A stretch of DNA of 64,000 nucleotides from Psammoneis japonica. Its lineage: Eukaryota. Positions 21,401 through 48,935 of this stretch are shown piece by piece (positions within the stretch are counted from its first letter, which is position 1; each line of letters starts with the position of its first letter). Location of the stretch: contig QPGO01000050.1 of assembly GCA_008632985.1 (NCBI GenBank), positions 248,001 to 312,000 of the forward strand, read 5' to 3'. Below the pieces are notes generated by a model that had not been told where the DNA came from, did not search any database, and saw only the letters and a program-made list of their open reading frames with translations. A program made the translations under genes and the position numbers.

Positions 21401-22433
21401 GCGCGAGGATTGGGAAAGGAATCGTGCTATAACCGAAAACGAGAAAAGTCGTTTAAACGCTTTCTTGCTGAAGCGCGCCGAGACCGAGCCCAAGCCGGTT
21501 ACGCCAGCCGCAAGTTTAGAAAGTCCCGAAGGTGATGTCCGTGATCAGGGCATAGAGGTGATCCATACCTTTGACGAAGAAGCTGGATTTGTAGGGCAAG
21601 TGTTGGGGAATAAACCAGGCACTGGACCCCTTAAAGACAGCTTTGTTGAGCCAGGCGTCGAAATATCGGACATCCTCGCCGAGCAAGTTTGGAGCAAGCA
21701 ACTAGATGACGTTGACAATGACGACAACGAAGAGGATGGGGTTAGCGAAGCCGTGTCTAGAGATCAGTCGGAGTTTCCTAGTGGCGAGGATCCACGCAAC
21801 GAAGCGGGCATCAGCAAAGCTCCAGATCCGGTTATTGGTGCTTCCGTCAACTTGACTGTCGAAACTGGATGGGACGACTCACCGAACTCTCGCATTATTG
21901 AAAACGCAATTATCAACGAGACTACAAGCGAGAGCCTTGTCGAAACTGACATTAGCGCAAGTAAAGGAACGGATCACGTCGAACCGGACGTGGAGGTCAC
22001 AAGCGATGCGGTGTTGGTTGAAATTGAAGACGGGAGATTCTCACCAATCGCTCCAAACGTGGGCGATGCGCCTGGGAAAGGTAGTGGGACAGCGACGGCT
22101 TCGGTGTCTAATCTACAGGAAGGTTGGGAGGAAGAAGGCAAAGGCGGGAGAACCTCACCAACCACTCAAACCGTGGGCGATGCGGTTGGCAAAGATAGTG
22201 GGACAGCCACGGCTTCGGTACCTTATCCACAGAAAGGTTGGGAGGAAGAAGGCAAAGACAGAAGAACCTCACCAACCAATGAAAACGCGGGCACTGAGGT
22301 TGGTAAAGATAGTGGTATAGCGACGGCTTTTGTGTCTTATCCACAGGAAGGGAAGGAGGAAGAAGGCAATGGCAACAACGACGACGAAGAGCAAGGGATA
22401 GAAGTCTCTTATGACTTTCCTGATATACTGTAA
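18442..22433 (+). CDS. C2-domain-containing membrane protein (MCTP-like), multi-exon, acidic repetitive tail
   Basis: Two C2-like regions (PWCVVRFG..HRTK..PIW; GRLYMEILSCHSLPN..DAFCCAVYED..DELSPHWMPW), hydrophobic TM segments and several GT-AG introns. Confidence 0.75.
22040..22370 (+). repeat. In-frame ~120-bp (40-aa) repeat, about 3 copies, in the C2-protein tail
   Basis: VG(D/T)xxGK(G/D)SG(T/I)ATAxVxxxQxGxEEEG repeated three times. Confidence 0.8.
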
Positions 22434-26134: not shown

Positions 26135-26772
26135 TAATAATCAAGTCTGGACTTGAGGGGAAGGGGGGAGTAGTAGTTTGCGCCATGGAGCGCTGTAGTA
26201 CAGTAGAAGGACGCTGCCGGAATAAAGCTGATTGGAACCGGCATGCACGCGTTACGATGCACGTTTAGTTGTAGAGGCAGGAAGTCTTGTGGGCTTCGCA
26301 ACTCTAATGTTTCATTTTATTCAATTTTCATCGTACCGTGCATAGTATGTAGGTATGCCATTGTGCTCAGCAGAAAGGATACATTTTGCCGATTGCGACA
26401 CAGTTTCAAGTTGTTCCCTTGTTGTTATCGCCTCGCAGTGCGGCATTGCATGGTTAGCTGTGAAAAAGGCAAGCTTTCTTTTATAGTACCGCACCTAGTA
26501 GACAAAGTGGTCTCGTATTTCCTTCAACTAGCAGTAGACCCTATGATGCGTAACAGCTTTGGCGTCTTGCGAAGGTAAACAACGTACAACGTGAGAACAA
26601 ACGCCTGTATTGCTAATAGAGAGAAAAGAGAATGATACACTGTGTGCATCGTGCATCATGAATTCTTTCTCGCTATCTCGCTCCGTCCGTCCGTCGTCGT
26701 CGATGCGTCCGGTCCGTCGCGTCCATTCTCTCTACATTCGTCTGCCAGGTGTACGTTTTCTGTGCATGCACC

Positions 26773-26817
<45 letters not shown>

Positions 26818-26818
26818 N
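26773..26818. other. Poly-C run plus N: probable scaffold gap at the gene-rich/repeat junction
   Basis: A long C homopolymer ends in n, and base composition changes abruptly right after it. Confidence 0.75.
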
Positions 26819-27829
26819 AACAAACAATGCAGTCGAACACCAAAAATCATTCAATTCATCCCAGTCTCTCAACACAAATGCAAACAAGCATGATTGGTTT
26901 GGTGTGGGCACCCTCTTTTTGATTGGCAGGGAGATCATGGGAAGAAAAAACCAACTGGGCCCTGCTGTGGTTGTTCCTGGGCAGAGAAAAGAGTTGCTTG
27001 CTCTCTCATGCCATTGCTTGTGCCACAAAAGTGCACTGCTAAAAAACAACAACAGTTGGTCAATTTCATGTCAGCAACACAAAAACAAAACAGTGTGGGT
27101 GGTTTGGTTGGGTGACATCCAATGGCTGATGACAGCAAAACTGGCCATCACAAGTTGAAAGTCTCCAGAGCATCGCAAGAATCTGTCAGACATGTGGGAT
27201 GTCAAGCACCTCCCTCACATGTGTGGTGCCCTGTGAGTGCAACCCAGTGGGTGACAGCATGTCAACACTGACTGCAAACTGTTTTTGTTTGTGCCACAAG
27301 GAGGGCTTGAGCAGAGGAGAAAAAGTGGTGCCAAGTTTTGGAGAAACACCAGACTGGGTTGGGGCGAACAGCCGCCACACCCACCACACCAAGCAGAGTG
27401 TAAAAACACAGAGCAGCAGAAAAGTGGTGTGTGTGTGACAGCCGTGATGGTGAAGCTGGCAGCTTGTGATTGGATCGTGTGCTTGAGACAACATGCAGCG
27501 CAAAATGATGGGCTGCTCTCCTGGAGCACATTGTGTGGTGTGTCTGTGTCGCTGTGGCAGTTGCACAAGAAAACAACAGCAGCTATCTGCACATTTGGTC
27601 TGGTGCATGATGAGATCCAATGTTGCCATTGTCAAGCCCCATGTTTGATTTTCAGATCATGGGAGAACAGCTGCAGCAGGGCGAGGTGTTGGAGAAAAAG
27701 AGCAGGGGAGGAATGTGTCATGCTGGCGGTGGTGGCTCAAGCAAAACAACAAGAGCACACCAAGTGCCAAAAACATCAAATCATGCAACAGGGGTTGAGC
27801 GGTGCACTTCTCCATCCAAGCACAACACA

Positions 27830-30790
27830 GAAAAACAAGCATCACTGGCTCAGTGGCAAAATCCAACGTTGCCATCTTTGGGCCTCGTGCTCGATTCACG
27901 GGTGATGGGGGTGACAATGTTGCATCAGATGGGCAGAGCCAGGTGTCTGTTCATTGTTTGGAGCTCTCTGCAGAGATCACATGATGCGCTCATGTTCGAT
28001 TCACAAAATGCTTTGTTTGGGTTGCTCAAGTCTCGCCTGCAATGCAACAACAAAACAAGCAGTGCCAATGATTCAGTGGTGAAATCCAATGTTGCCATTG
28101 TCGGGCCCCATGTTTGATTCATGGTTGGCGGGAATGACAATGTTGGATCAGACAGGCAGAGCCAGGTGTCTGTTCATCATTTGGAGCTCTCTGCAGAGAT
28201 GACATGATGCACTCGTGCTCAACTCACAAAAAAAATTGTTTGAGTTGCGCAAGTCTCATCAACTGCCCAACAACATGACAAGCAGCACCGATGGTTTGGT
28301 GGTGACATCCAACGTTGCCATTGTTGGGCCCCATGTTCAATTCACGGTTGGCGGGGGTGACAACATTGCATCAGATGGGCAGAGCCAGGCGTCTGTTCAT
28401 TGTTTGGAGCTCTCTGCAGAGATCACACGATGCACCCGTGTTCGACCCACAAAGTGCTTTGTTTGAATTGCTTGGGTCTCACCTTTGTCTCAACAACAAA
28501 ACAAACAGTGCCAATGGTTCAGTGGCAAAATCCAACATTGCCATCGTTGCCATCGTTGGGCCCCGTGTTCGATTCACGGTTGGCAGGACGGGCAATGTTG
28601 GGTCAGATGGGCTGTTCATCTGGAGCTCCCTGCAGAGATCACACGATGCACCCGTGTTCGATTCACAAAAAACAGCGTTCACATGATGCAACTCTTACGT
28701 TCATGTCAACACCGAAACAAACAGCACCAATGGCTCAGTGGTAAAATCCAACATTGCCATCGTTGGGCCCCGTGTTCGATTCGCGGTCAATGGGGTGGGG
28801 TGACAATGTTGGGTCACTTGATGCAGCAAACAAGTGACATGAGTCTCCTTGCTCATCTCATCAGCCTGTGTTCAATTCACACAGATGACAGTGTTTGGAT
28901 CATGGGCTGCTCACTCACACGCCAATCAAGTCATTGTTTCTTCAGCCCGGGTTCGACTCAAGTGACACGAGTCTCCTCATTCATCTCATCAGCCCACGTT
29001 CAATTCACATGGATGACACTGGGTCCGTGTTCGATTCTTCACAGCATGCAGAGATTGTGCAATGTGACACTCCTTCCGTTGTCAGCTGAAAAGCGAAACG
29101 CACCATTGGTTCAGTGGCAAAATCCAACGTTGCCATCGTTGGGCCCCGTGTTCGATTCACGGATGATGGGGTGGGGCGACAATGTTGGATCACTTGATGC
29201 AGCAAACAAGTGACACAAGTCTCCTCGCTCATCTCATCAGCCGCCCATGTTCAATTCACACAGATGACATTGTTTGGATCGTGGACTTCTCAGTGAATGC
29301 AGAAATTAAGTTGCACAACTTTCCACCCACGACGTGTTCCAGTCCCAGGTGACACACAAAACGACAATCGATTTTGAACACAAATTGTGCATCCATCAGT
29401 GTGCGAAGCATTTTCACACAAAACACTTGAGCGGATTGGCTTTCATGGGCATCTGGAGCACGAACAATTGTGAAGAATTGAACAGTTTTCTGTGGGGTGT
29501 GAAAGTCCTCATGGGACATGTGTCGTGAACTTCCTCAGCAGACTCAATGCTGATTGTGCATCACCAGTCTTTACACTGAGATTTCTTTGCAGGTGGAAAA
29601 CACACCAAGAAGCATCGCAGGAAGACACGCTTGGTTGACATCCAAATGGATGCGTTCCAGCCCTGGGTGGGAGCTCGCAGCACTGACGTGTGACAACAAC
29701 AATTTTTGTCATCCGTCGCATGTTTCGTGCGCAGATTTCTGCATGTGACATTTAAAAAAAATTGTCCAGACTCGCTGTTTTGCGAAGCCCCAGAAGTTTT
29801 ACATGACAAATTTGTAGAAACAACAATGTGCCAGCTGCGTTCTTCAATGTCGGAAGAATGCAACTGGCCAAGTAAAAAATGATGTGCTTCAATCATGTGC
29901 GAGTTTGTGCGTTCGCAAAATTGCCTCATTTTCTGTTGGTGATCATTGGCATTTTAATTGCCGTGTGATTTTGCTGCGGAGCTCGCACATGAAAGTCTGC
30001 GGGCCCAATGTCACACGGATTCCCACCTGTGTCTGGAACGCGCCAATGATTGCAATGATTTTGCCGAAAATCATCCCTTGTGTTGCAACTCATTTGGTGC
30101 AATGAAAAACATTGATGGCACAACAACAATGATTTTGCAACACTCGCACGAGTCTTGTCAGTGTTGCAAAACAATGGAACTTGAGTGAGCCCATGCTTTT
30201 GGTGGTGAAAAACCGTTCGCAAGTCAGAGACCGCACAAAAATCGCGCAAATGTCGTTTTTGTGCACGATTTGGGTCACGTGCAGCTGGAACACGTCCCAC
30301 ACTCAGCAAAAAAAGCAACAAGCACCACTGGTTTAGTGGTGAAATCCAACGTTGCCATCGTTGGGACATTTTTACGTACGTGTGCTTTGTGTAGATTGGG
30401 CACGCGCACCAAATTTTGAAAGCACGCCACGCACGCACTCCATTGTCACTGGGCCCGTGTTCGACTCACAGCTGACAGGGTTTAGATTGTGTTACATTCC
30501 TTCATCTAACAGCTGAAAAGCAACAAGCATCATTGGTTCAGTGGTAAAATCCAACGTTGCCATCGTTGGGCCCCGTGTTCGATTCACGGATGATGGGAAT
30601 GACAATGTTGGATCATGCATGTGCAGCCTCCAACGTTGCCATTGTCGCTGGGCCCGTGTTCGATTCACAGCTGGCAGAGGTTAAATTGCACAACTTTCTT
30701 TTACCAATCAGCACAAAAAGCAACAAGCATCATTGGTTTAGTGGTAAAATCCAACGTTGCCATCGTTGGGCCCCGTGTTCGATTCACGGA
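27830..30790. repeat. 223-bp tandem repeat array plus dispersed partial units
   Basis: Core gtgg(ta/ca/tg)aaatccaacgttgccatcgttgggccccgtgttcgattcac at 27853, 28076, 28299, 28522 (223-bp spacing), 28738, 29114, 30336, 30541 and 30741. Confidence 0.9.
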
Positions 30791-30809
30791 TGATGCATCC
30801 CAGGCTTAG

Positions 30810-33800
30810 GCGCCTGTGCTTTTTGTTTTTTTTGTTTGCGCGCATTCAATCGTACGTGCGTTGTGCGTACATCGAACGTTGGCGATGATGATGATTCAAA
30901 AAACCTCGAGCGAGCGAGCCAGCGCGATCCAAGAAACTTTTTCCTTCCTTGCTTTCCCTTGGTCAATTGGCCAACCTCGCTCAACGACATGTCAATACAC
31001 ATCAAACATACACCGGTTCGTACAAGTGCACAAAACACAACATGAACATCGACACGATTCTTTATTGCGTTCATTGCGTTCTTGCCTATCTCCTGCCCTG
31101 TTCTTCATTCTGAATTCGATGTATTTTGTAGAATCCTCATGATGCGACTTGCTTTACAAGTTACAAGTGTGATAAAAATGTCTCTATGCAGTATTGATTT
31201 GTTTCCTGATCGGTATTTAGCAGCGGATGTACCCGTATGTATCACAAATGAAACGCTCGAAAAATGGTAAGGCAACGATGTTATATATCTTGTTTGTCAT
31301 GGGCATCTTACACTATTTGCTTTGTTTGTATTTTGTATATATGTTATTGCTTGCATGTTCATATGCTTTGAGACGTGCTGCTTGCTTCGATTTACATTTC
31401 ATTGCTGCTCGAACCGTTTGTTCTTTGAATATGGTGAGTATGCAACACACAATGAATCACGAGGACAACAAATACATTTTGTGCACCTAACAAGTACTCT
31501 TTTTTCTCTTTTGCAGACAATCAATGATGATGGTCCAAGTCTATCCTCCAAGAACGCCGCTCTGATTGAAGCGTTGCGCGTGTTAAAGAATTTGACAATC
31601 TTTCCCATCTGTGCATTTGGATCTACAAAGAAAGGCCGCCGAACGACTCGTACCTTATCAATCTAGCGTTGTCGTCATAAGTCAATACTTTGTGGTGTCG
31701 AGGTGCCAGCGAGTTACAGGAACTTCAAAAGCACCCCAAGACGCACGTCCTCAAGACTCAAGACACACCTCTACATGCCCATGAAATTCAAGTTCTAGTG
31801 CAAAACAACAATGTACGGAGTAACATCATGTTGTGGATGTCGAGATGATGCCGACAAAAAACCGGTAGTACGAGGACAGACTGTCCGTGACTGAGCTGGC
31901 GGGATTGATGACTAGAAAAAGATCCACGAAATTGGCGCGCCGGAATTCTCTCGGTCATCAATCTCAAAATCGACGAAAAGAAGAGGAGTGTCTCATCGAG
32001 CGCTGCTTTGTTTTTTGACTGCTCTTTGTTAGGTAAGCATTTATCTCCATTCATATCAATGTCTTGTGTGGTTTATACTTTGAATATGATTTTCTCTTAT
32101 CGTGTGTGGTTTGTCGTCGCGCCGATCGTTTGAACACAAGAGTCGACTCCATCGGCACACGAGGTGCGTCGGACGTCAAGTGACTCGTCGCGACAGTATC
32201 ATACCAACAGCCTTATCCCAAGGTGAGTATTGAATCGATACAATGCTATTCTTCAATCTCCTCTTTATATAAAATGTATTGCTCATTGATTGTTTTGTTC
32301 CGTGTTGATTGTTGGTTCGATATCGTTCAGAGTTTCGGAAACGATCGTATTGCAATACAACACGCACGCTACACTCGGCTCGGCATTGGTGTCGGTATAC
32401 CAATCGCTATCATTCGACACGGTGAGAACTCAATCACATTATTATTCATACTGAATTCTTCTTTTGTTTTTGATTTACTTCTAACCATTCGTCGTTTGTT
32501 GTTGTGAATGCCGAATGATTCGCACGTGATTCTCACAGGAGCTAAATATATCGCATCACGATGCCTCCCAAGCAGCAAATACCCATGGCCAAAGGACAAA
32601 GGACACTTGGTGCCTTTTTTAGTCCCCGTGCCAAAGCCAACAGAACGACTACCACGACCGCCAAGACCCCAGCCAATGCGCAACCAAAACGAAAAGCGGC
32701 AGAAACGCCTGCAGGCAGGAAGGCCAAGGCACCCAAAATTACTGAATTGTCCACTGCGCCAATCAGTAGTTTCTTTCAGTCTCCACCACCTGCTCGTACC
32801 GGTACTCTCAAGACGCCTTCTACTATTGTTGCCGACTGTCGTCCTGCTAGCGACGAATCCTCAACCAAGAATGCCGATACTACCGGTACCAAGTCCAACA
32901 ACGATGCTGATTCATCTACCAGCCCATCTGACTCCATTATTGCTACAAATGGACTGTCATTGGAAACAACTTTGAAAGAAGCAACCGCGAATAGTAGCAA
33001 TGCCAACAGTTGTGAGGACGACGAATCGTATATTCCAGAAGAGCTTGACCCGCCGCAACAAAAGGAGGATGATGCTGAAGACGACGATCGTGTTGATCTG
33101 ACTCAAAGTGCCAAGGACCATTATCGTAAATATTTCATCATGCCCATCACTGGCGAAGAAAATGCACGCCGTATTGCTTTGCCATACCAACGAGAGGCGG
33201 TAAAGATCTTGATTCGTGAGAATGCTTTTATGGACGTAAAGGGCGACTTAGCTGGAATTCTGGTCAAGAAGCCACTTGCTGGAACTTGCATTGTTTATGC
33301 TGAAGTCAATGAATCGCCTTGTGTTGTGTTTCGAGAACCCGGCAACGGCATGGAGGTGGAGGTGCGCAAAGTGGGAATGACGAGTAACGGCAAGCGTCGA
33401 GAAGCCGACCGACTCCGCCAAGGGAAGATCAGCAGTACGGACCAGTTATCAAGCTTGTAGACATTGCTAACCTCCCCCCTCATGTTGAGAAAGAGATACT
33501 GAAAGCTGCTGTAATGCCTTGCTTGAAGGACCTGTCGACGGATCCAAGCTTGCACCCATTCCAACGGCATTTTTTCTCGGGGATTCTCGAACGCGGCGCG
33601 GATGTTTTGGGCTTCCTGGGACAGTTCATGTACCAAACTATCGAGTCGGGATTGCAAGACTATTATGGCGTTGGGGGTCCTTGCGAGTATCTAATGTTTT
33701 CTCCTGCCATTGTTGATCGGTATTTTGCTGAAGCCGAGATGCATGCGAGAGAGATTTTGGACGACATGGATTGCATTGTCAAGGCCATGGCACATGCTGG

Positions 33801-35300
33801 CTCGGCTCCCAGAATTCATGGAATGGGCTCATGGAACACTGGTAGCCAAGCCAAATTCTCGAGCAAGATGGTCACTCTCCAAAGCATTGTTGGTCAAGAG
33901 AACAGCTTGTCGGACACCTTACCTGAACCAGTCTACCCGAACGCCAAGGGTGCTGATCAGGTATTTTCTCAAGACTACAAAGAAAGAGAAAAGGCAGAAG
34001 GGCGTGCATTTTTGGTAAAGTTTTTGACTGAGTGGTTGAGAGAGCAGGAGACGCCCGGTGTGGTTGTTCTGGACACAAACAAAGTGCTGTATCAAAACCT
34101 GGATGGACTCTTGGACATGCTATCAGCTCAACGCTTTGTGACGATTCGAAGTGTGCTTGACGGCGAGGCAACGGTTAAGCTATACAAGGATGCACCGCAT
34201 GGGGTTCTGGTCAACAAACCGTTGTGCTACGCCAGTGACAGCCGCCAAACTACCCCGCTGGAGTACAAGGCACGCCGCGCATTGACAGCTGCCATTCTCA
34301 CCAACGTTTGCCGTGGCCTCAAGGGACAGGCTTTCCTCTCTGTCAAGGACCGTTTCGAAAATCCAATTTATGCTGCCATTGCATTCCAGATTGGCACCAT
34401 TGGCTGTCATCAGAACCTTCGCCTTTGCAGCGCCTTTTTCCGTGACTTTGAAACGCCCGAAGACCAGTTTCCCTTGAAAGACAATGGACTCGGCAAGTGC
34501 ATTCCTGGTGGACCGTTGGTGCTGAGGAACCGGAAGAAGACTCATCCAAATCGCCAAGAAGAAATTGCCAACGCAGTCCGCAGAGTGGACGCAGACTTTA
34601 TCACCAATGCACGGTCCATCATTTGCCAAGCTAAGAGTGGGGAAGAACGACAGCTTTGTGAGAGCTTGTATGAACTCTGCAAGCAGGGAAATGGCGCAGA
34701 TCCAGATTCAAAGAGCAAGAAGTTTCTTATGTACATTCCCGATGAAATCGTACCCGGTTCGGAGTTCTTGCGCACGATGAAGGACCACTGGGAACAAGTC
34801 AGAGAAAACACGGGGAATCCAAATGCAAGGGGTTGTACAAAGGTAGAGCTCCACTACAAAGCCAGCCAGTTGGCAGAAATCATTGAAGATTGCAAGCCGA
34901 GAGAGGGGAAGCGAGGAATTCCGTTTTGGGTGAAGGAGACCATGAACTCTGTCGAACCTCCGACACCCTCCAAATCCAACTGCCCATTCCACAACTTTGG
35001 GGCTGACTCGGTAAAGTGTGAAGGCCACGTGCACAGCTCGTTTCGGGGTCCGACCAAGGAACTGCTTGTGTGCAAGGATGGTCATCAATGCAAAGTCAAA
35101 CGCATCATGACGAGGAGCAACAAGTCGATCGGAGTGAAAGCTGCCATGCCAGGAAAGGAGCCACACTTGCTTGTTGAGCTGGTGGTTGATTGAACCTTGT
35201 GAATGCAAACAAGGTGCTGCAGCACAGTGGGGTGTTGCAGACTCTGCTGTAGAGAAGCAGTCTAGCCACTGGACCGTGCTCGGAGTGGGACTAGACAGCA
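30810..35300 (+). mobile_element. Unclassified ~4.4-kb repeat family, copy A (largely unmutated)
   Basis: Collinear homology with 42697-46872 + 53700-54030 and 58340-62740. Shared marker gagcgagc..gatccaagaaactttttccttccttgctttcccttggtcaa. Ends are approximate. Confidence 0.75.
32561..35193 (+). CDS. Repeat-encoded hypothetical protein (~880 aa once a 1-bp deletion at ~33446 is repaired) with an N-terminal PIP box
   Basis: ORFs 32561-33460 and 33514-35193. Paralog C reads through the junction (DQFVKLVDIANLP). QRTLGAFF at residues 13-20. Confidence 0.7.
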
Positions 35301-35324
35301 CTCTAGAGTGGACACATGTCTTTT

Positions 35325-35630
35325 TGTTTGTCATGGGCATCTTACACTGTTTGCTTTGTTTGCATTTTGCACACATGTTGTCACTTGCATCTTGCATGTT
35401 GACATGCTTTGAGACGTGCTGCTTGCTTCAATTTACATTTCATTGCTGGTCGAACCGTTTGTTCTTTGAGTGTGGTGAGCATGCAACACACAATGAATCA
35501 CGAGGACGACAAACACATTTTGTGCACCTGACAAGTGCTCTTTTTTCTCTTTTGCAGACAATCAATGATGATGGTCCAAGTCCATCCTCCAAGAACGCCG
35601 CTCTGATTGAAGCGTTGCGCGTGTTAAAGA
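35325..35630 (+). repeat. TpA-mutated partial duplicate of 31291-31589
   Basis: Near-identical to 31291-31589, differing mostly at TpA sites. Confidence 0.9.
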
Positions 35631-36530
35631 TTTTTTTGTTTTGGGCGGTTGTGCTTTATTGAGTTTTTTGTGCTCATCGTACGCACGTGGTGTGTGCGCT
35701 GGCGATGCAAGATTCTGCTCTCACCACAAAAGACATTCTGCTCTCACCACAACGTAGAAACGTGCCGAGCTCCATCGTAGAAAAAATGCACTCTTTGCCG
35801 AAACGGAATCTCGATCGACCTCTTCGACGCAGCCGACGCAAAAAACACTCTTGAGGTCTCTTGTCGACCATGTGCTTCTTGGAGTTTGTGAAGTGGAGTT
35901 GCTTTTTTTCACGTGGATTGCAGCCCGGAGTGGGCGCAAGGCGGAGCATTTGTTGATGCCGGTGGCAGTGTGGAGTGCAGCCCGGAGTGGGCGAAAGGCG
36001 GAGTTCTTGTTGATGCAGACATCTGTGTGTTCCACTTGCTGTGTCGTTTTCATCACACTTCTGTCGCAGCTGTTGCAGCAACCATGTCATTTGATTTTTC
36101 CCTTGTTGGAAATGATGGTTGGTGCAATGCCGCACTTCGCGATCACGATGATGTCAACGGGAGAAGCAACGAGGCTCACAACGTCAACGAAACAGCTGTC
36201 AACCTTGCCGCATCAAGCTCCTCAGAAAGTGGCGGCAACGATGGAGAGCATGCAAATGATGCCGTCGCCTCGGCAGTTGTGGGTCAACTCAAGGACTCTC
36301 GTGATTGTGCACCCAACTCTGGCGTGACTGTCGACCTTGCCGCGTCAAGCTCCTCAGAAAGTGATGGTGACGATGGACGGCACATGAACAACAGCGTTGA
36401 CTTGGCATTTGTGGGTCAACCAAAGGACCCCAGTGATCATGCGCCCGACTCTGGCGTGGCATCCAAAGCAGGCAAGGACAGTGTTGTTGTCTGAGGCTTC
36501 AGCAAGACACCTGTTGCTCACAATTGTTCC

Positions 36531-37361
36531 TTGTTTGTCTTGTTTCATTGTGTTGCAGCAGCTGCTGTTTCACTGCCGGCACCCCAAGATGCCCCTTCTG
36601 ATGGCCATGACCACACCAGAGATTGGTCCCCGTTGTGGTCTGCTCCGTCGCCCGACTTGGCAACGCAGCATTCGAAAAAGCCTTCTGATGCCAAAAAACA
36701 AATCATCGAATTGTGGAACGCCCCGGATGGATTCAAGTTCCTTGTCAACTCGAAGGCAGTCATAAAACGCTGGGACTGTGCAGACCATGGATGCCCGGTG
36801 CAGGTAAAGACCAAGCGCTCCGGCTCAAAACTTGTCAAAGAGCAACGAGGACCACACAACCACCCCCCACCCAGAGGGTTGTCTGCGAGCGCGAGGAACA
36901 CGCGTGCCCCAGCACACAAATGGGCGGTCAATGCGGAGCTCTCGGACTGCCTTTTGCGGCATGTGAACAATGTGGAACGAAAGATTCTCGACAAGTGTGA
37001 GGTGGAAGATCCGGTGGCACTGGATCAAAAGTTGCGTCCAGTGAAAGCATTGCGCACCACTGCCCCTCATGTCAGGAATGCAAGTGCATGCTCAAACACC
37101 ATTTGCCACCTTCTCCCAACAGAGTCTGGTGGTTGTTGCCTTCCTTCTTGCGTCAGGCCAATTGTCAAATGTCCAGGTGTCACGATCCATTCTCCAAAGA
37201 AGTTTGCCGTGGTGAAGGAGAGTGCCAATGTGACAGCAGCAGCATTGCGCCACTGCCGTGCGGCGCGGGATGCTGCAACACCAAAGGTGTCAGCAAATGG
37301 ACTGCCCAGCTCTTGGTGGAGTGCAAGCGTCAGAAAGACAAAGATGTTTGTGAATCTCTGA
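36531..37361 (+). pseudogene. MULE internal ORF with WRKY/FLYWCH-like Zn finger, TpA-mutated
   Basis: KRWDCADHGC...GPHNHPPP (W-x-C-x4-C...H-x-H). Confidence 0.55.
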
Positions 37362-37616
37362 TTTTCGGACTGCAGTGTTCTCTGTTGTGGCAGCAAGAAG
37401 TGACGTGATGCAATTGTTGATCACACGCCGCACAACAACCCGTGCATCTTCTGTCATCCGCTGGTGGCTCGCACAATTTCGAAACGTGTTTGACAAGATC
37501 CGTTGCGGGGGACTGCGACATGCGTGACCACGCTGTCGATTTCGATCCGTGCGCCAGATGACCAACTGTGCATGCTCACCAAGATCTGTTGATCACAATT
37601 CGCGCTGCAGACAAAG

Positions 37617-39800
37617 ATGAGCGATGTGAATGACAGAGATGACAAGCCGCCACCTGACCTGGAAGGGTGGAGAATGGTGAATTGCATGTCATCACCCACC
37701 TCTAAATCCGGTGGAGAAATCTCGGATGACAAGGAACGTCTCATTGAAGAGCTCAAGGCAGCAGAGAATGATGGGCTGTGCGGAAAACATCATGGGCAGC
37801 ACAAAGACAGACTCTGTTTGTCCATTTGTCAGTCTGGACAATGCCGCGTCGAGGCTGGGATGCAATGCTTTCCAGGGAAACTGGGCACACATTTGAAACA
37901 AGGCCAATGTCACAAGAACCATGACCAGACTCCCGAGCGTGGCCTGAAGAAACCAGCACTTCATCATGTCCGAGACAACTTGCACAAGAATCGGAGTGAC
38001 ATTCTTTGCGACTTGAAGGACAAGGGAATGAACAACAAGTCATGGCCCGATGACAGAATGAAGAAAGCCATCTCAAATGCAATGAGCGCTGAAGGAAACA
38101 AAGCAGCCAATGAAAACGGTGCATTCCAAAACCTTGATGATGTGAAGTGGCTCCTCAATTGTCACAGCAAATCCATTGATGAGTTTCTTGAAGGAAGCAA
38201 AGCAACCACGCAGTCTGTTGCAGGCTTGATCCCGGCATCGAGAAAAGACCCTCTTCAGAAAATTGTGGTTCTGCGCCATGACACAGATGGTGAAATGGGC
38301 CCCCAAGATTGGTCGCAGATTGTTGCGACATTTCAAAGTGCACAAAGAGCTCTTCAGAGTGCAGAACAGCTCTGGGGCACGGGGAAAGTGCAGCTGGAGA
38401 TTGACCACGCAAAAGGGTTCTGGAAAGGAGACCTTCGGCAGCTTGGCATGGTGGGCCTTGGCGACGCTGACAGAAAGTTCTTTCCAATCATTGTCAGCAT
38501 GCAAAATGCCGAGGACAGTGACGGAAGTGCCAGCACTCTGATTCGTTCTGCTGAGATGGCATCAAAGAGTTCCGGCATGCCACGCACGTGCCTGAAAGAT
38601 GGCTCGCTGGCACTTGCCAATGGCACCAATCAAGTGCAGCTGTCTGGCAACGACTGCTTTGCTCACATGATGCGAGCGCCTTTCACAAGAGGAGGTGGCT
38701 TCCGTGGATCCAGAGGATCATTCTCTCGGCACATGCTCAAGCAAGGATGTGCCATGTCAGACGTGTTCGGCATCCTTTCCCACTGTTTTGCGTTCTCCCA
38801 TCTCACGTCATTGTCCGACTGGGTCACAGCAAGGAAGCCATTCAAGGCGGAAAATGCAGACCTTCCAGACCATTTTTACGAACAGCACCTGCCAGCATTT
38901 CCCAGGTTTGGATCTGCTTGTCACGAACCAGGAGAGGCACAATCGGGGCAAGGGCTGGAATGAACTTGGGGTCATCTTAGACATTCGAAGCGACATTGTG
39001 ACGTCAAGAACAAGACGGGCGACCTAGAGTCAACATTGGAAGCTGTCTCTGGGTGCGAGGAAAACCATTCAGAAGAAACATTTGCCACAAAGACAACGAT
39101 TCCCAAAGCGGGTTGGGACGTTGTAGCTGAGCACTGCTGCACAGAGACAGGCGTTGATTTCAAAAGCTGCAGCTGCTGCTCTTCAAGCACTGGCAAGCCC
39201 CTGATGCGCCAAGAAGCAATTGGAAAAGCGGCTGCAGTTGGCGGACATGTTGTGCACATTCCAAATTGTGCCTTCTGCATGGAGTGGAGAGACAAGGCGG
39301 TGAGGAAGGTTGTTGGCACAAACGAAACAAAAGGTGGACTCACCATGGAGCAAATCTTGCTCCAACAGAAGCTCGTGAAGGATCGAACATGTGTCTCCAA
39401 CCGACCCACACGTGTCAAGTCAGCATTCATGACTGTCCTTGGCAACCACCTTGAAAAGAATGCTCCAACGCCCCTCGAAGGGGAAGACTGCCGTTCATGC
39501 CTTCTGCGAAGGTCGCAGCGCAGCATCTCTGCTGGAGATGTTGCGCCGCGTGGGAAGAAGAAAACCAACAAAAAGAGAAAGAAGGGTGGTGCCAAGAGCA
39601 GCCACGAACAAGAATTGGAAATGAAGAAGTGGGAAACAGACGTCGCAGCGGAGTTCAAAAGAAACTTACAACAACAGTTGCCAAAGGATGCAAGCAAGGA
39701 TGTGGAAGCAGATTCGGATGCTCGTGCACTGCGCTGTGCTGGACATAAAACCGCTTGGACTGCCACGACTGTGTCTCCAGTACAAATTGTACGTGGGTAA
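37617..39800 (+). pseudogene. MULE DDE transposase, inactivated
   Basis: LEID..., FFPII..E, CLKDGSLAL, the CxxH signature NDCFAH and QSGQGLE followed by TGA (probably from CGA). Only one Tyr in 448 aa. Confidence 0.8.
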
Positions 39801-40345
39801 CAAACGGCATGTCGGTAGAAAGCTGAGAATCTGCTCTTTCAAACGGTGCATCCACTGTTGTCTCTGGTAGATGTTTAGAGTGAACTAGAACCTTTCAAAG
39901 TTGAAGTGATGTACATTTTGCGCAGGTGTTCATATGAAATGACGTGTAAATATATTTATATATGATGTTGAAGATTCAATAAACGGGTTGCATTTCGTGC
40001 GTTCAGAAGACATGCCAGTAGACTACAGCATAGTTCCTACGGGCGAAAGAGACGAACAAGAAAATGCTTATTCGAAATCAAATACCTGGATTTTTCCGTC
40101 GATAGTTGCACCTATTTGTACTAAAAACAATAAGGAAATGAACTATCGGCGGACCCTTTCCAAAAAATCGGCAGAATGGGTCAATTTTGAGTTTTCAAAA
40201 ATCCTGTGTGTCAAAAAATCGACTTTCTGATCGTTTTTCGCAAAGGGTCCGCCGACAGATCGAAAGAAAATGATCGATTTTGTTAGGTAAAGTGTGCTCA
40301 AATTTCTAATTTGACCAATTTTGGGTTTCGAACAAGTGGTGGCAG

Positions 40346-41179
40346 GTGAAACAGTTTTACGCGCAGCCCAGCGTACTGGCTCAATTGACCAACTCGGCCG
40401 CGCCACAGCAAACTTTGAAAACATCTCCAAATGGCAACTCCAGCATCGATGTTTCGACAAAGCAAAGGCGCAACAAGCTTTGTGGTAGGGCGTGCGGACA
40501 CTTCAAGGAAGTTATTGTGCCAGCACAAGGGTCTGTTTCCTGCAATTGCGAAGACTTCATGAGAGACGGATGGTGTACCGATAGTCTCATCTACAACTTA
40601 GTGGAGCATGGGGAAATGCCGCCAGCTGAGTGCAAAGCTGTCGATGGCGTTGGTTGGGACAAGATCAAACAGGGGTGGACGACAAAGCTGATGAGTACAG
40701 CATTCGGTGCAGAGGGGGAAGAGAGCGACTCAAGGAACATGCACAAGACTTACTTTCCCGCAGTGGACCCACTGTTTCAATTCCAATCCGTGATTGAAGC
40801 TGTGCCGGTGCCATGGACGCTAGATTATGCCACCAACGAGCCGGAAACTTTGGGCCTCAGTCTATCTCTGTCGGAGACGCCTCACAAAGTGAAGATCGCC
40901 AAAGTTGGATTGAAGTCTAGGGGAAAGGTCCTTGCAGGGGATATAATCATCAAGGTGAACGGTGTCGAAGTGGCATCCAAAGACAACGGGGTCATTCTCC
41001 CAGGACACGGTACTCGGGATATTCAGAAGATTATTGCAGACTCGAAGAGAGAACGGAGGATTGTGACATCCGTCAGCACAGACAGGAGCGAAAGAATTTG
41101 TAGTATTGCCTCCACAGCGGTGGTTAAAAAAAAGGGGGTGTGTAGTGTAAATTGTAGGAAACGCGATAGTCTTGAATAG
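40346..41179 (+). CDS. MULE 3' ORF/exon with SWIM-like Zn finger and PDZ-like segment, unmutated
   Basis: SCNCEDFMRDGWC (CxC..C) and TLGLSL...KVKIAKV...VLAGDIIIKVNGVEV. Confidence 0.55.
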   Translation: MKQFYAQPSVLAQLTNSAAPQQTLKTSPNGNSSIDVSTKQRRNKLCGRACGHFKEVIVPAQGSVSCNCEDFMRDGWCTDSLIYNLVEHGEMPPAECKAVDGVGWDKIKQGWTTKLMSTAFGAEGEESDSRNMHKTYFPAVDPLFQFQSVIEAVPVPWTLDYATNEPETLGLSLSLSETPHKVKIAKVGLKSRGKVLAGDIIIKVNGVEVASKDNGVILPGHGTRDIQKIIADSKRERRIVTSVSTDRSERICSIASTAVVKKKGVCSVNCRKRDSLE

Positions 41180-42047
41180 CATGATGAAACGTTACTACGT
41201 TTGCGACGTATCGGCAAAATGTGAGATACAAGTCAGGAGCGAATTGCGATACGGTACTTCATCAAACTCACCGGAATGTACAAATCAGGAGACACAAATT
41301 GAAGTATTGCATCCATAGCAGTCTTTGAAACGATGGGTGTGTGTAGTGACAATCGTAGGAAACGCGATAAATTTGAATCGCACAACAAAATACTCTTACG
41401 TTCATGACGTGCCGGTATCAATGAAATGTGAGATGCAAGTCGGGAGCAAATTGCAATACGGTACACGGCACTTCATTTAGAAAGTTCAAACTCACCGTAA
41501 TATACAAATCAGGAGCCACGAACTGTAGTATTGCGTCCAACAGCGATAGGTTCCTCCCGACTTCATTTCGCACCCACCACGACTATGAGAGACGGTGTGG
41601 TGAACGAGACGACAAAGAAAGTGAACGTCGCGCTAGCAATAGGCAGCTGCAACAAAAGTCACAACATGGTTGAATCATCATAAAGATGGAGAAGGAGGAG
41701 CCATTTCATCCATAACAGCATACCTAGGATCATATCTTGACGAGTAGCGTTTCGAAGCATTGACGTTTGTTTTAATAAACAATAAGACAGTAGACGGTGA
41801 GATTGCCTGAATGATTGTGTGGTGTGTAGGGCCTATTTTTTATGGCAATTGCGACCTCGTCGAGAGGCATTTTCACGAACACCTTGATAGTGAGATTCCG
41901 TTTCGGTAAAGAGTGCGTTTTTTCTACGACGGAGCTCGGTACGTTTCTACGTTGTGGTGAGAGCAGAATTTCTTTTGTGGTGAGAGCAGAATCTTGCGCT
42001 GGCGACTCAAAAAATCCACTCGAGCGAGCGAGCGCGATCCAAGAAAC

Positions 42048-42696: not shown

Positions 42697-45600
42697 ACTT
42701 TTTACTTCCTTCCTTTCCCTTTGGTCAATTGGCCAATGCGTGCACAGCACACATCAAACATGCGCCGGTGCAAGAACACAAAACACAACATGAACATCAT
42801 GCATGTGGATGAGTCTCTGCACGGTTCGTCATTGCGCTCATTTTGTTCGTTGCGTTCATTGCGTTCTTCATTCTGAATTCGACATGTTTGGCAGAATCCT
42901 CATGATGTGGCACACTTTGCAAGTTGCAAGCGACAATGTTTTGGAGCTGCTGTCTGCTGTCTCTCTGCAGCATTGATTTGTTTCCTGATCGGCATTTTGC
43001 AGCACAAGTGCCGGCATGCATCACAAATGAAACGCTCGAAAAATGGTGAGGCAACGACGCCGCTGCACATCTTTTTGTTTGTCATGGGCATCTCGCGCCA
43101 TTGCTTTTTGTTTGCATTTTGCACACACGCCATTGCTTGCACGTTGATGTGATTTGAGGCACACTGCTTGCTTCGATTGACACTTCATGGTGAGCATGCA
43201 ACTTGAGTGAATCGCGAGGATGACGAATGAATTTTGTGCATCTGACAACCACCAAGCACACTTTTTTCTCTTTTGCAGACAATCAATGACACTGGTCCAA
43301 GTCTGTCCTCCAAGAACGGCACTGCAATTGAAGCGCTGCACATGTTGAAGATTTTGACAATCTTTTCCACAAAGGCAGTGTCCGATTTTTTGTTGCTTGT
43401 TGCACTCGGATCTACAGTGAAAGGCCGCCGAACGACTCGCACCTTGTCAATCTAGGGTTGTCATCACAGGTCAACACTTTGTGGTGACGAGTGTCAGCAA
43501 GTTGCAGGAAGTTCAAAAGCACCTCAAGACACACTGCAGGTGCCTCAAGACTCACCTCCACATGCCCTGCTTCTGTGGCAGAGTTTTAGAGATTCGGGCA
43601 CCACCCGGCTCACACACGGGTGTTGCTGATTTTTGCATTCACTTCATTTGTTTGGGCTTTGCGATGCGCTCGGCTGTCTTGACACGAACAACTGCAGTGA
43701 CAATGTGACATCATGATGTCATGCAGTGGGTGACGAGATGAGAACGCAGTTGTGGCATGCCAATGAAAAGCCGGCAGTGCGAGGACAGACAATCCGTGAC
43801 TGAGCAGGCGGGATTGATGGCTGGAAAAAGATCCGCGAAATTGGCGTGCCGGAATTCTCCGGTCATCAATCTCAAAATCGACGAAAAGAAGGCTGGTGTC
43901 TCATTGAGAGCTGCTTTGTTTCATGACTGCTCTTTGCAAGGTGAGCCTTCATCTCTGTTTGTGTCAATTTCTTGTGCCGTTCACACTCTGATTGTGGTTC
44001 TCACTTGTCATGTGTGGTTTGTCGTCGGGCCGATCGTTTGAATGCAAGAGTCGACTCCATCAGCACACGAGGTGCGTCGGACGTCAAGTGGCTCGTCGCG
44101 GCAGCATCACACCAACAGGGTTGTCCCAAGGTGAGCATTGAATCAACACAATCCCATTCGTCAACTTCCTCTTTATAAAATCATGCATTGCTCATTGACT
44201 GTTTTGCTCCGTGTTGATTGTTGAGTTGATGTCATTCAGTGTGTCGGAAATGACAGCATTGCAATGCAACGTGCACCCCACACTCGGCTCGGCATTGGTG
44301 GCAGCACACCAATTGCTGTCATTCAACATGGTGAGTGCTCAACCACGTTGTTTTTCACATTGAGCTCTTCTTTTGTTTTTGATTTACTTCCAACCATTTG
44401 TCATTTGCAGTTGTGGCCAAAGGATTCGCACATGCTTCGCACTGGAGCCAAATGCATCGCATCACGATGCCCAAACAGTGCAAGCCCCTGGCCAAAGGCT
44501 GAAGGAGGACTGTTGGTGCCTTTTTAAGTCCCTGTGCAAAGGCCAGTGCAGCAGCTGGCATCAGAAGCAAGTTGAGAACTGCTGCCAGGACTCCTGCCAT
44601 TGTGCTGCCAGTGAAGCCAAAGGCAGCTGAGACACCCACCAGAGAGAAGTCCAAAATGCCCAAATTGACTGAGCAATCCACTCTGCCAATCGGGAGCTTT
44701 TTCCAGAGTCCACCACCTGCTCCTGCACTGCTCAAGACACCCTCTGCTGTCATTGCCGACCATCGTCCTGCCGGCGACGAATCATCCTCCACAAAGAACG
44801 CTGATGCCACCAGCGCACATGTTGCCACCAAGTCCAACTGTGAGACTGAAACAGCTCCCAGCTAATTTGACTCCATCATTGCTGCAAATGGATTGTCATT
44901 GGAAGCAACTTTGAAAGAAGCCACCACAAACAGCAGCAATGCCAACATTTGCAAGGATGATGAATCGTTCATTCCAGAAAAGCTTGATCCACCGGAGAAG
45001 GAGGAGGAGAATGCAGAAAAAGATGACAGCTCTGTCGAACCTTTGCCTCAAACCACCAAGGACCATTTTCTCAAAAAAAATCACCGTGCCCATTGCTGGC
45101 GAAAAAAATGCACGCCGCATTGCCTTGCCATGCCAACAAAAGGCGGCCCAGATCTTGATTCGTGAGAATGCTTTTGTGGGCGCAAAGGGTGACCTGGCTG
45201 GCATTCTGGTCAAGAAGCCACTTTCTCAAAGCTGCGCTGTGTGTGCTGAAGTCAATGAATTGCCTTCCATTGTCTTTGCAGAACCACAAAATGGAGGGGG
45301 GGGGTGCACAAAGTGGGAATGACGAGTGATGGCCAACGTCAAGAAGCCGACCAACTCCAGCAAGGAAATGTCAGCAGTGCGCGGACCAGTTTGTCAAGCT
45401 TGCAGACGTTGCCAACCTCCCCCCTCATGTTGAGAAAGAGATGCCCAAAGGTGCTGCAGTGCCTTGCTTGAAGGACCTGTTGACGGATCCAAGCTCACAC
45501 CCATTCCAACGGCATTTTTTCTTGGGTGTTCTTGAATGCGGCGCTGATGTTTTAGGTTTCTTGGGACAGCTCATGTTTCAGACTGTTGAAGCAAGATTGC

Positions 45601-47173
45601 AAGACTGTTGTGGCGTTGGGGGTCTGTGCAAGCACCTGATGTTTTCTTGTGCTGTTGTCAATCGGCATTTTGCTGAAGCCAAGAAGCACACAAGGGAGAT
45701 TTTGGATGACATGGACTGCATTGTCAAGGCCTTGGCAGACACTGACTTGGTTCCCAGAATTCATGGAATGGGCTCATGGAACACTGGCAGCAAAGCAAAA
45801 TTCTCAAGCAAGATGGTCACTCTCCAAAGCATTGTTGGTCAAGAGAACAGCTTGTCAGACACCTTGCCTGGACCAGTCCACCAGAATGCCAAGGGTGCTG
45901 ATCAGGTGTTTTCTCAAAAACACAAGGAAAAGAAAAGGCAGAAGGGCATGCATTTTTGGCAAAGTTTTTGACTGGGTGGTTGAGAGAGCAAGAGACGCCC
46001 GGTCTGGTTGTTCTGGACGCAAACAAAGTGCTGCACCAAAACCTGGATCAACTCTTGGATGTTCTTTTGGCGCAAGGCTTTGTGACAATTCGAAGTGTGC
46101 TTGATGGCAAGATGATGGTTGAGCCACACAAGGATGCACCGCATGGGGTTCTCATCAACAAACCGTTGTGCTGCGCCAGTGACAGCCGCAAAACTGCCCT
46201 GCTGGAGCACAAGACATGCCGCGGATTGACAGCTGCTGTGCTGACCAATGTTTGCCGCGGCCTCAAGGGACAGCCGCGTTCCTCTCCGTCAAAAACCATT
46301 GCGAAAATCCAATTTGTGTGGCGCTGGCATTCCAGGTCGGCACCATTGGCTGTCATCAAAACCCTCGCCTTTGCAGCACCTTTTTCCGTGACTTTGCAAC
46401 ACCCAAAGATCAGTTTCTGCTGAAAGACAATGGACTTGGCAAGAGCATTCGTGATGGACCATTGGTGGTGAGGAACCAGAAAAAGACTCATCCAAATCGC
46501 CAAGAAGAAATTGCCAATGCAGCCTGCAGAGTGGGCGCAGACTTTGTCGCCAATGCTCAGTCCATGATTTGCAAAGCTCATTGTGGGGAAGAATGGCAGC
46601 TTTGTGAGAGCTTGTGTGAACTTTGCAAGGAGGGAAATGGCAAAAAGGCAGACTCAAAGGGTGAGACGTTTTTGATGTGCACTCATGATGAAATCGTGCC
46701 CAGCTCGCGCTGGGGAAGCAACAGACAGAACTCAGGGAACCCAAATGCAAGGGGTTGCACAAAGGCAGAGCTCCGCTGCAAAGCCAGCCAGTTGGCAGAA
46801 ATCATTGAACATTGCAAGCCCAGAGAGGGGAAGTGCGGCATTCCGTTTTGGGTGAAGGAGACTGTGCACTCTCATCAGAGTGCACGAAATGTCAAAAATG
46901 TGCAGATTTACATGATGACAATTTTTTTGTCGAAATGTTGCAAAAAATTGTTGTCATGTGATGACAGGCCAACCTCTGGTTGCAAGTTTGGTGTGCCAAC
47001 ATTGCAGCAACTTGTTGAGAATTGTGCACGCTGTTTTTCACCACATCCACATCGCTGTTTCTGCCTCCACCTTGTTGCCATGTGCCAAAGCATGATTGCA
47101 TTGCCACACAATCCTTGGTTTGTTGATTTTTGTTAAGATCATTTTAAACAAGAAAAGCATTTCGTCGGTCAAG

Positions 47174-48500
47174 TCAATCCCTTGTTGGGTCTGCAGTGCA
47201 ATGACCGAGTGCTGTGTCAACTGTGCACACATTTTCTTGCTGCAACTCTCTCAAACAAAGCTGACAATCATCATCGGACTCGTCTCCATCGGACTCGTCT
47301 CCTCCGTCATTCGTTTTGCCTTTTGTGCCTTCCTCCTGCTCATCGTCATTGCTGTTGTCGTCCCTGCTGCTCTCCACCATTGGGCTGTTCATTGCCTTCA
47401 CCTTCTCCACATCACCGGCCGGTGCTTTCTTCTTCTTCTTTTTTGCTTCTCCGGACTTCTCGCACTCGCTTTTCTTGTTCTCCACATGCCACTTTTCAAA
47501 CTCCTTGCCCTCCTTGGACTCTCTGTCTTTCGTCACCTCTTTGCATGAATCGTTGAACCAACCAATTCCATCGTCTCCCCAAGACACTCGTTGTTCTTTG
47601 TTTGGCTTCGTGTGCCGAGGGGCAGGCCTTGTTTCTTCGGGCTCCATTTCCTCACCCAATTCTTCCACCGCCTCCTCCTTGTTCCTGCATGCCCGCACCT
47701 GCCAACAATTCTCCACAGCTGACAGCACCAAAGCTTCGTCACCGACCGCAAACAACTGTGAGACCTGTGCATTCCCAGTTTTGACGGCACTGCTCCATGC
47801 CTGCTTTTGCTTGGTTTGAGGCAGGATGTGATCACAGAACCACTTGCATGCCTGCTTGTTCCTTTGTTTGCCGCCGGCGACAGTGTCCAGGCCAAACGGA
47901 TCCCATGTTGGCACAAACGGGATGTCATTCTCTTCATTCTTGTCATGGCTTGACTTTTTCCTGCCTTGCTTTTTCCTCCTGACTGCCGCCTTGAGTTTCT
48001 TTTCTTTTTCCTTTCCCTCTTCCTCAGTGACAACACCCACATGGACAAAGCATCACCGTCATCTTCTTGTGAGACACACGCAACTCTCGAATCACACACA
48101 TTGGTCACTTGGCTTGCGGGCTGTTGCCTCCGCCCCAACAGCCGAACACACCATGTTTCTGCGATTGTCAATTTGCCTTTTTGCCGCCTTTTTTGCCCAT
48201 TCCTCCCAAGTTCCTGACCAATTTGAAGTGTCCATGTTGCCACCAGCAATCTGTTTCTTGACAAACATTGAGACGCTCTCCCATTGCTTGCCAATTCTGA
48301 CGGACTGAGAAACTTCACCTGTGGAAAGAGATCATTTCCAGCCACCTTCTCCACTTCTGATTTCAATGCACCACACGCTGCCTGCACACCTGTTCTCTTC
48401 AACACTGCCTGAAGTCTTGGGCTCATCAGCTGAACAGTCTCATTTTTCTTTCTCTTCTTTGCCGGTGGTGCTGGAGACGACATCTTGATCTTTTCACGGC
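47174..48500 (-). pseudogene. Accessory ORF of the Plavaka/CMC element, TpA-mutated
   Basis: WFCDHILP...VGDEALVLSAVENCW...RHT...SWGDDGIGWFN..DR pattern, recalled from companion ORFs of such elements; not confirmed by search. Confidence 0.5.
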
Positions 48501-48935
48501 AACAATGAGAGGAGTGTTGCTGTTCGACAGTGCAACCGTCGTTTGGGTCGTGTTGAGACAGCCAGCCACTTTGTTTTTCTCTGCAACATTGCACAAATTG
48601 TTGTCAGCAACATTGAAATTTGAAAACACATTTGCACGTGACAACGAACAGCCCAACTTGCTTTTTGACATGGCTGTCACTGTGTTTCAACGGAGATGAT
48701 GTCCTGCATTTTGACAGCAAATGAAAAGTGCAATGTTCATTGTGAATGCCAGACAAAAAATCAAAATGCAGACACATCACACCCACGAGAATCATCCAAA
48801 TCTGGAAGACAATGCAATGTTTGCCAATTTCCCACCATTTTTTGCGTGTTGCTCTTCTTTTCCCTTCTCATCCACAAGACAAGGACGACGAGCATGAGTC
48901 TTGATGAAGGCCCTGTCAACATTGTCTGATCAACA

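Follow-up and report, generated by a model that had tools for sequence, protein, structure and literature searches.

The stretch of DNA analysed here (the window) comprises 64,000 nucleotides of the diatom Psammoneis japonica (contig QPGO01000050.1 of assembly GCA_008632985.1, positions 248,001 to 312,000, read on the forward strand) and carries a gene, here called gene A, whose 5′ end is duplicated in a domain nearly free of TpA dinucleotides. Gene A lies on the forward strand at 30936-35263 and contains open frames at 32546-33460 (304 codons) and 33388-35193 (601 codons). Neither frame matched a Pfam family, and the 601-codon frame had no relatives among 7,999 scored candidates. Copy A (31290-31593, forward strand) is the 5′ part of this gene, with a GT..AG intron and 16 TpA steps, and was used as the unmutated reference. 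Copy B (35324-35634, forward strand) is a partial duplicate of copy A in which the intron is still present; the two copies are 92% identical and lie 4 kb apart. Only 73 bp separate the end of copy B from the start of a transposon with terminal inverted repeats (TIRs), which spans 6,291 bp (35707-41997, forward strand) and contains a gene roughly 1,000 codons long. Two decayed paralogues of gene A, C (42697-46872) and D (58391-62439), both on the forward strand, and an array derived from tRNA-Gly(GCC) genes (27582-30797) are also found in the window.

In a pairwise alignment, copies A and B matched at 285 of 304 aligned bases and differed at 19, and a further 7 columns were gapped. The sole insertion or deletion between them was a 7-bp tandem duplication (CTTGCAT twice) at 35384-35397 on the forward strand of copy B, which is missing from A and C, and four of the 19 mismatches were transversions. 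With the gap placement of MAFFT, the 16 TpA steps of copy A corresponded in copy B to 8 CA, 5 TG, and 3 retained TA, exactly the counts given in the original prediction. With the gap placement of the pairwise alignment, 15 ungapped TpA steps corresponded to 8 CA, 4 TG, 3 TA, and no CG. The imbalance between CA and TG (8:4 or 8:5) was not significant (p=0.39). Transitions were found at 12 of 32 TpA bases and at 2 of 156 other A/T bases (Fisher test, odds ratio 46, p=5.8e-9), so that the A/T bases outside TpA did not change at a comparable rate. Copy A carried the A/T allele at 14 of the 15 transitions (binomial p=0.001), and 12 of these 14 changes between A/T in A and G/C in B fell on TpA. Nine of the ten CpG steps of copy A were kept in copy B and one was CA there; copy B also contains ten CpG steps, one of which is CA in copy A. 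The proportion changed was thus 12 of 15 for TpA and 1 of 10 for CpG (p=0.001), and the differences outside TpA numbered six over 272 positions, in agreement with the earlier statements that one CpG in ten was lost and that few other differences exist. The fraction of TpA converted in copy B (13/16, 95% interval 0.54-0.96) corresponds to 1.67 hits per TpA, which exceeds the background rate of differences per site about 76-fold (range 16-396). The process had been described as near-saturating, highly context-specific, and fast relative to background divergence, and the numbers bear out all three descriptions.

The duplicate may extend slightly beyond these limits. Immediately upstream of the two copies (31278-31289 versus 35311-35323), A has TATATATC and both B and paralogue D have CACATGTC, across a 3-bp indel. 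This segment may add three TpA conversions and would lengthen the duplicate by about 12 bp.

Analysis of dinucleotide composition showed that the loss of TpA is a property of the chromosomal domain around copy B and not of the duplicate as such, a point on which the original prediction, which left the process unspecified, was silent. The TpA-poor domain with copy B extended over about 35.0-39.75 kb (35001-39750), perhaps with a weak start from 33.75 kb. Its TpA observed/expected ratio was 0.21 at 35001-35706 and 0.048 in the core (35707-39750), where 11 TpA steps were found against 231 expected, and its CpG ratio was 0.67-0.70, with the value of 0.70 in the core. The TpA ratio outside the depleted zones was 0.60 (1-26750), 0.61 (31001-33750), and 0.61 (39751-41997). 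The right edge of the domain was sharp, with 2 TpA in 39501-39750 and 16 in 39751-40000, whereas the left edge was graded, the ratio passing from 0.32 to 0.21 and then to 0.05. The domain therefore comprises the host DNA to the left of the transposon (copy B and 0.7 kb around it) and the left 4 kb of the transposon, and the right 2.2 kb of the transposon is spared. Two other zones were depleted to a similar degree, one at 26751-30250 (forward strand; 0.057, 13 TpA observed against 229 expected), which contains decayed tRNA-Gly(GCC) repeat units, and one at 42501-64000 (0.042), and paralogues C and D also lie in TpA-free DNA. Altogether, the depleted zones (28.75 kb) retained 82 TpA steps, whereas normal DNA contained 1,340 over 32.25 kb.

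In the low-TpA zones, CpA and TpG reached 1.5-2.0 times expectation, and the CpG ratio was 0.47-0.70 compared with 1.0-1.1 outside. Around copy A, TpA/ApT was 0.59 and (CpA+TpG)/(ApC+GpT) was 1.25, as in the ordinary genes of the window. The corresponding values in mutated DNA were 0.02-0.1 and 1.5-2.3, which makes the surroundings of copy B, and not those of copy A, the outlier. The tyrosine content of the frames in the zones was 0-0.2%, compared with 2.0-2.7% in ordinary genes. The erasure of TpA is separate from the decay of CpG and faster: the core of the domain still had a CpG ratio of 0.70 at a TpA ratio of 0.048, and the loss of TpA precedes that of CpG.

Some features of the zones were recorded in addition. 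A poly-C run of about 45 bases (26770-26818) ending in a single N lies at the left edge of the zone at 26.75-30.25 kb; this edge may be a weak point of the assembly and not a biological border, and a second lone N is located at 16546. The large TpA-free zone contains a tandem duplication with a period of 2,165 bp (54820-58271, units 93-96% identical). The lowest CpG ratios (0.07-0.22) were found in the 54, 55, 57, and 63 kb bins, the last of which is the final kilobase of the window, and these bins look the oldest or the most methylated. Without TAA and TAG, the region 47000-53500 showed long open frames on both strands and in several frames (for example 47174-48052, 47533-48603, 48930-50147, 50023-51060, and 51559-52851), none of which had a Pfam match, and gene finders would over-call genes there.

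The transposon adjoining copy B offered an internal comparison of mutated and spared DNA. It is bounded by a left TIR at 35707-35812 (forward strand) and a right TIR at 41892-41997 (reverse strand), which differ by 5 mismatches in 106 positions, and by 9-bp target-site duplications, GCTGGCGAT at 35698-35706 (forward strand) and GCTGGCGAC at 41998-42006, identical at 8 of 9 positions. The five mismatches of the left arm consisted of two TA-to-TG changes, two CpG-to-TpG/CpA changes, and one transversion. The right arm, which lies in DNA with normal TpA, keeps the two TpA and two CpG steps that are gone from the left arm; it is thus the arm within the domain that is decayed at both TA/TG differences and both CpG differences. 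The frames at 37593-38963, 38964-39800, and 40310-41179 matched consecutive parts of a single relative of 1027 residues across the domain boundary, and the first two are free of TpA whereas the third is normal. The gene had 91 relatives in a representative library. At 13 alignment columns with tyrosine in the relatives outside the window, the protein of the window had histidine (CAY) or cysteine (TGY) at 10 and tyrosine at 1, while other types of residue were kept in 41-92% of conserved columns. A protein language-model search grouped the main frame with the transposases of Mutator-like elements (MULEs), with a score of 0.94 and agreement of all ten best hits, and no Pfam model matched the frame or 10 of its relatives. 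Mutator-like elements typically combine long inverted repeats with a target duplication of 9 bp. The MULE-like label is put forward as a lead only, suggested by language-model features together with the geometry of the TIRs and of the target duplication. A scan of metagenome contigs with the alignment of the transposon protein, for the same signature in other organisms, gave 156 pattern matches and zero confirmed cases.

The position of the domain edge was informative about the mode of targeting. Only copy B was changed, while copy A was spared 4 kb away, and the right TIR arm was spared likewise, which indicates targeting by position and not by homology. Since the edge falls inside the transposon and the host flank is mutated as well, the editing of a transposition intermediate was ruled out and the action took place on the DNA in place. 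The targets differed in kind, too: the core of the domain is the TIR transposon, of which a third is spared, and host DNA gave rise to copy B, to both paralogues (C and D), and to the tRNA array. The changes are restricted to the domain and follow neither a repeat family nor the limits of the transposon.

The array derived from tRNA-Gly(GCC) contained about 10 units at a spacing of about 200-380 bp, with one larger gap of about 1.2 kb. Rfam recognized three of the units at E<=0.01, at 30727-30797 (56 bits), 30527-30597 (42 bits), and 29100-29170 (35 bits), and the first two are intact genes. Among the 10 aligned units, one step of the D-loop was TA in three, CA in three, and TG in four. The best-scoring unit (56 bits) has TA at this step, and decay is seen in the units of the TpA-free zone, which have CA or TG there and differ at many other bases too.

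The pair of copies alone cannot tell whether B lost TpA or A gained it, and the paralogues were used for this question. Of the 146 TpA steps of gene A aligned with C, 115 were CA or TG and 5 were kept; the corresponding numbers for D were 95 and 3 of 130, and CG was the product at 3 of 146 aligned TpA steps in the comparison of the family gene. Independent hits on ancestral TA are expected to leave about half of the sites discordant. Twelve sites combine TA in A with CA or TG in each of B and C; the products were the same at six of them and different at six, and C and D differed in product at 30 of 80 such sites. These differing products argue for independent changes of an ancestral TA, since C-to-T changes in A predict almost none. 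A simple outgroup parsimony with C (9 sites with A derived, 9 with B derived, and 3 unresolved) was dropped as a test of polarity, as C is itself saturated by the same process. Sequence comparisons along five lines, namely the composition of the domain, the discordant products in B/C and C/D, the D-loop of the tRNA units, the tyrosine columns of the transposon, and the TIR arms, showed TA to CA or TG change in copy B, the direction proposed originally.

The opposite direction, with B ancestral and C-to-T changes at CpA (G-to-A at TpG) in copy A, would resemble repeat-induced point mutation (RIP) of fungi. Copy C agrees with B at 6 of the 12 sites, where parsimony calls A derived, and the context of the differences is RIP-like when read from B, with 12 of 68 CpA/TpG bases changed against 2 of 62 other C/G bases. 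However, the discordance of CA and TG at 6 of 12 sites (B/C) and 30 of 80 sites (C/D) needs an ancestral TA, the surroundings of A are ordinary in their dinucleotides, gene A retains its open frames of 304 and 601 codons, the outside relatives have tyrosine where the domain has histidine or cysteine, and the host is a diatom and not a fungus. As far as the accessible text of the RIPCAL paper goes, RIP prefers CpA, as such a reading would require, but mutates both copies of a duplicate (PMC2621366). Taken together, these observations leave the reverse direction very improbable.

The residual TpA steps of the zones depended strongly on their flanks. Relative to normal DNA, the residual density was 0.47 for TTAA, 0.13 for CTAA/TTAG, 0.13 for GTAA/TTAC, 0.08 for CTAG, 0.006 for ATAG/CTAT, and 0 for both ATAT and ATAC/GTAT. 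The three survivors in copy B, at 35343 (TTAC), 35434 (TTAC), and 35625 (TTAA), followed the same rule, with T at -2 or A at +1 next to all 3 kept sites compared with 2 of 13 converted sites (p=0.018). A T before or an A after the TpA step weakens the action, and the survivors stand in TTAN/NTAA contexts. The strand that was struck also depended on the flanks, as TTAC gave TG in 11 cases and CA in none, whereas GTAT gave CA in 26 and TG in 8, which points to a preference of TAY over TAG over TAA on the strand with the A-to-G change. Along the family gene, CA and TG followed one another without an excess of runs (64 compared with 58.3 expected in C, and 52 compared with 47.2 in D), and the two strands were struck independently, one site at a time.

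These properties bear on the idea that copy B derives from a transcript that underwent ADAR-type RNA editing and was then reverse-transcribed and inserted. ADAR favours G on the 3′ side, which differs from the order TAY > TAG > TAA found here. The intron of gene A was kept in B, A-to-G changes (5) and T-to-C changes (8) were interleaved within one copy, no same-strand runs were found along the family gene, and the unique flank and the left part of the adjacent transposon were affected in the same way as the copy. The preference of ADAR for a 5′ U does match TpA (10.64898/2026.01.13.699255, in the part of the preprint accessible), yet a retrocopied edited transcript is hardly credible and the least probable of the explanations considered.

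A sequencing or assembly artefact was also weighed, in which a modified base at TpA would be miscalled and the TA steps would still be present. The sequencing platform is not on record, and the runs come from one sample and may be the source of the assembly itself. Independently built contigs of the same run agreed with the domain sequence, showing 1 difference in 1,190 bases and none in 2,025. Stop codons, indels, and CpG decay occur in the same zones, and the decayed tRNA units differ at many other bases. Each site had one fixed product, with CG nearly never seen (3/146), whereas strand-specific miscalls would differ. With these observations an artefact becomes even more improbable than the RIP-like reversal.

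Copy B is thus most likely a recent, partial copy of the 5′ end of gene A, located inside a domain where TpA hypermutation has acted in situ at the DNA level. Several points weigh against this explanation. The 300-bp pair offers few sites (16 TpA), and the same product is found in B and C at 6 of 12 sites, which simple parsimony would read as a change in A; we attribute these sites to parallel hits, and single sites cannot be proved. In a check for light conversion of gene A itself, A had CA where C or D has TG, or the reverse, at 59 sites along the whole gene with no trend towards its 3′ end, many of them in poorly aligned stretches. At its right boundary the domain meets about 0.5 kb of AT-rich, high-copy sequence (39750-40300; word depth 694 compared with about 70), which interrupts the match to the 1027-residue relative, and the spared right part of the transposon could therefore stem from later events. 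Public contigs of one sample (Logan), aligned to 30800-40000, showed no variant inside B, and the differences and joints seen there fell at contig ends or came from paralogues; no RNA data set was listed among the public runs containing the stretch. The 3′ part of gene A (33751-35000) was intermediate in TpA (0.32) and CpG (0.68) compared with the 5′ part (0.61 and 1.10, respectively), which may reflect leakage of the adjoining domain into the live gene.

In this domain, TpA steps have had their A:T pairs replaced by G:C, and the strand struck decides whether TpG or CpA results. A site once changed is no longer TpA and is then spared, so that CpG is not the product. As for the mechanism that we propose, the agent would be an enzyme acting on chromosomal DNA, most likely an adenine deaminase that converts A to inosine (hypoxanthine), read as G at the next replication. 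Such an enzyme might be directed to silenced, CpG-methylated chromatin, nucleating on transposons and spreading into the adjoining DNA, and the process could serve to disable mobile DNA. The parallel depletion of CpG suggests that the domains are methylated, silenced chromatin, and targeting through chromatin would account for the spread into host flanks and for the indifference to homology. The natural substrate of TadA/ADAT enzymes, A34 of tRNAs, always follows U33, which would fit the requirement for T before A.

The same erasure of TpA could also be a by-product of replication or repair in silent chromatin, through error-prone gap filling (G opposite T at TA) or a mispairing modification of thymine. 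The restriction to domains, the graded left edge, and the parallel depletion of CpG fit a process linked to chromatin, and independent, unclustered changes on the two strands are as expected for scattered lesions. Against this, about 95% of TpA was lost while the remaining A/T bases stayed close to background (2/156 in the A/B pair), a specificity well beyond that of known polymerase error spectra, which also affect ApA. T at -2 and A at +1 both hinder the change, so the flank rule reads the same on either strand, which suggests that a protein recognizes a short duplex or strand motif. It speaks for a by-product that no enzyme has been identified in any organism, and that the ADAT2-like candidate named for the alga Bigelowiella natans, as set out in the accessible text of a preprint (Mettrop et al., bioRxiv 10.64898/2026.01.13.699255), is a prediction only; on the other hand, the process in B. 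natans switches on in some lines only. A by-product of this kind is considered unlikely, and hypermutation by a dedicated enzyme is the explanation that we retain.

Outside the zones, the frame at 10905-12611 encodes a TruD/Pus7 protein whose best named relatives were from Chaetoceros, Nitzschia, Thalassiosira, Cylindrotheca, and Seminavis (47-63% identity), in keeping with a diatom host. A search of Pfam with 22 frames of the window found only TruD and C2, both in ordinary genes. A further gene with normal TpA, a frame of 519 codons, contains three tandem 114-bp units (22027-22368, 77-85% identical) that encode a repeated protein segment.

Several known systems share part of this pattern. The decay of 5-methylcytosine at CpG also yields TpG and CpA and affects the same domains; however, it acts on CpG, of which B lost 1 in 10, compared with 13 of 16 TpA. 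Hyperediting by ADAR and editing by APOBEC3 are similar in that deaminases produce context-dependent clusters of transitions against selfish nucleic acids. These enzymes act on RNA or on single-stranded replication intermediates and leave same-strand clusters limited to the element, whereas the changes described here fall on both strands, without runs, and affect a DNA transposon, its flank, and a host fragment that retains an intron.

A parallel in outcome is RIP of Neurospora and other fungi, which also ruins repeated or mobile DNA by dinucleotide-specific transitions and involves the same dinucleotides, CpA/TpG and TpA. RIP depends on the fungal sexual cycle and on RID, for which we know of no counterpart here. 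RIP makes TpA from CpA and lowers G+C, whereas in the present case TpA is destroyed and G+C is raised. According to the accessible text on RIP, both copies of a duplicate are mutated (PMC2621366), whereas here only the copy inside the domain was changed. The process is a mirror image of fungal RIP and not a member of it, as both the direction of the change and the sparing of one copy differ. A broader proposal, which we regard as tentative and somewhat short of an even chance, is that diatoms possess a programmed genome defence acting on chromatin domains, which would edit a VTAB motif (through A to inosine or a thymine route) on the two strands independently, nucleate on transposons, spread no further than 1-2 kb into host DNA, and run more than 10-fold faster than the decay of 5-methylcytosine, and whose occurrence in a stramenopile as well as a rhizarian would make it an old counterpart of RIP with opposite chemistry across the stramenopiles, alveolates, and rhizarians (SAR). 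If this proposal is true, the A/B pair would be the first calibration of the rate of such a process in a natural genome. In any case, the pair isolates the variables, as the same sequence is present 4 kb apart, inside and outside the domain.

A natural DNA mutator that changes A:T to G:C at a specific dinucleotide is, to our knowledge, almost without precedent, and a natural DNA adenine editor, if it is the true agent, would be of interest to genome engineers. In the literature examined, the preprint on B. natans was the sole description of such a process, and no report from a diatom turned up. In mutation-accumulation lines of that alga, two integrated viral regions accounted for 231 of the 302 nuclear point mutations; these arose de novo and were nearly all A-to-G/T-to-C changes, all on TpA, for which the authors propose adenine deamination with an ADAT2-like candidate (Mettrop et al., bioRxiv 10.64898/2026.01.13.699255). 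The accessible text of the preprint does not mention diatoms. As far as that text goes, the two cases agree in several respects: the changes are nearly exclusively A-to-G/T-to-C on TpA and give TpG or CpA, they are confined to particular regions with the remaining genome at baseline, they run against the usual GC-to-AT bias, and their long-term footprint is low TpA with high CpA+TpG. The enrichment of transposase and reverse-transcriptase domains among the low-TpA genes of B. natans is a further likeness.

There are also differences from B. natans, described within the same limits of the source. B. natans is a chlorarachniophyte (rhizarian), whereas the present host is a diatom (stramenopile), and de novo events were seen in the former, compared with a footprint in one assembly here. 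The targets in B. natans were integrated DNA of nucleocytoplasmic large DNA viruses (NCLDV) and of virophages, compared with a TIR transposon, gene paralogues, a tRNA-gene array, and a fragment of a host gene in P. japonica. The erasure is more complete here, with a TpA ratio of 0.04-0.05 compared with 0.45 in the NCLDV region of B. natans, and the edge of a domain lies within a single element, unlike in B. natans. The flank rule, by which TTAA is resistant and ATAT and ATAC are fully erased, and the independence of the strands were found here and are absent from the main text of the preprint in its accessible part. Near-complete saturation in a diatom means that the process is not limited to one alga, and TpA erasure may extend widely across the SAR lineages dominant in the marine phytoplankton. 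In such genomes, annotation will miss elements in which tyrosine has changed to histidine or cysteine and the TAA and TAG stops have vanished. The domain around copy B is therefore a diatom instance of a kind of process described from a single preprint, to which it adds information on targeting, context, and rate.

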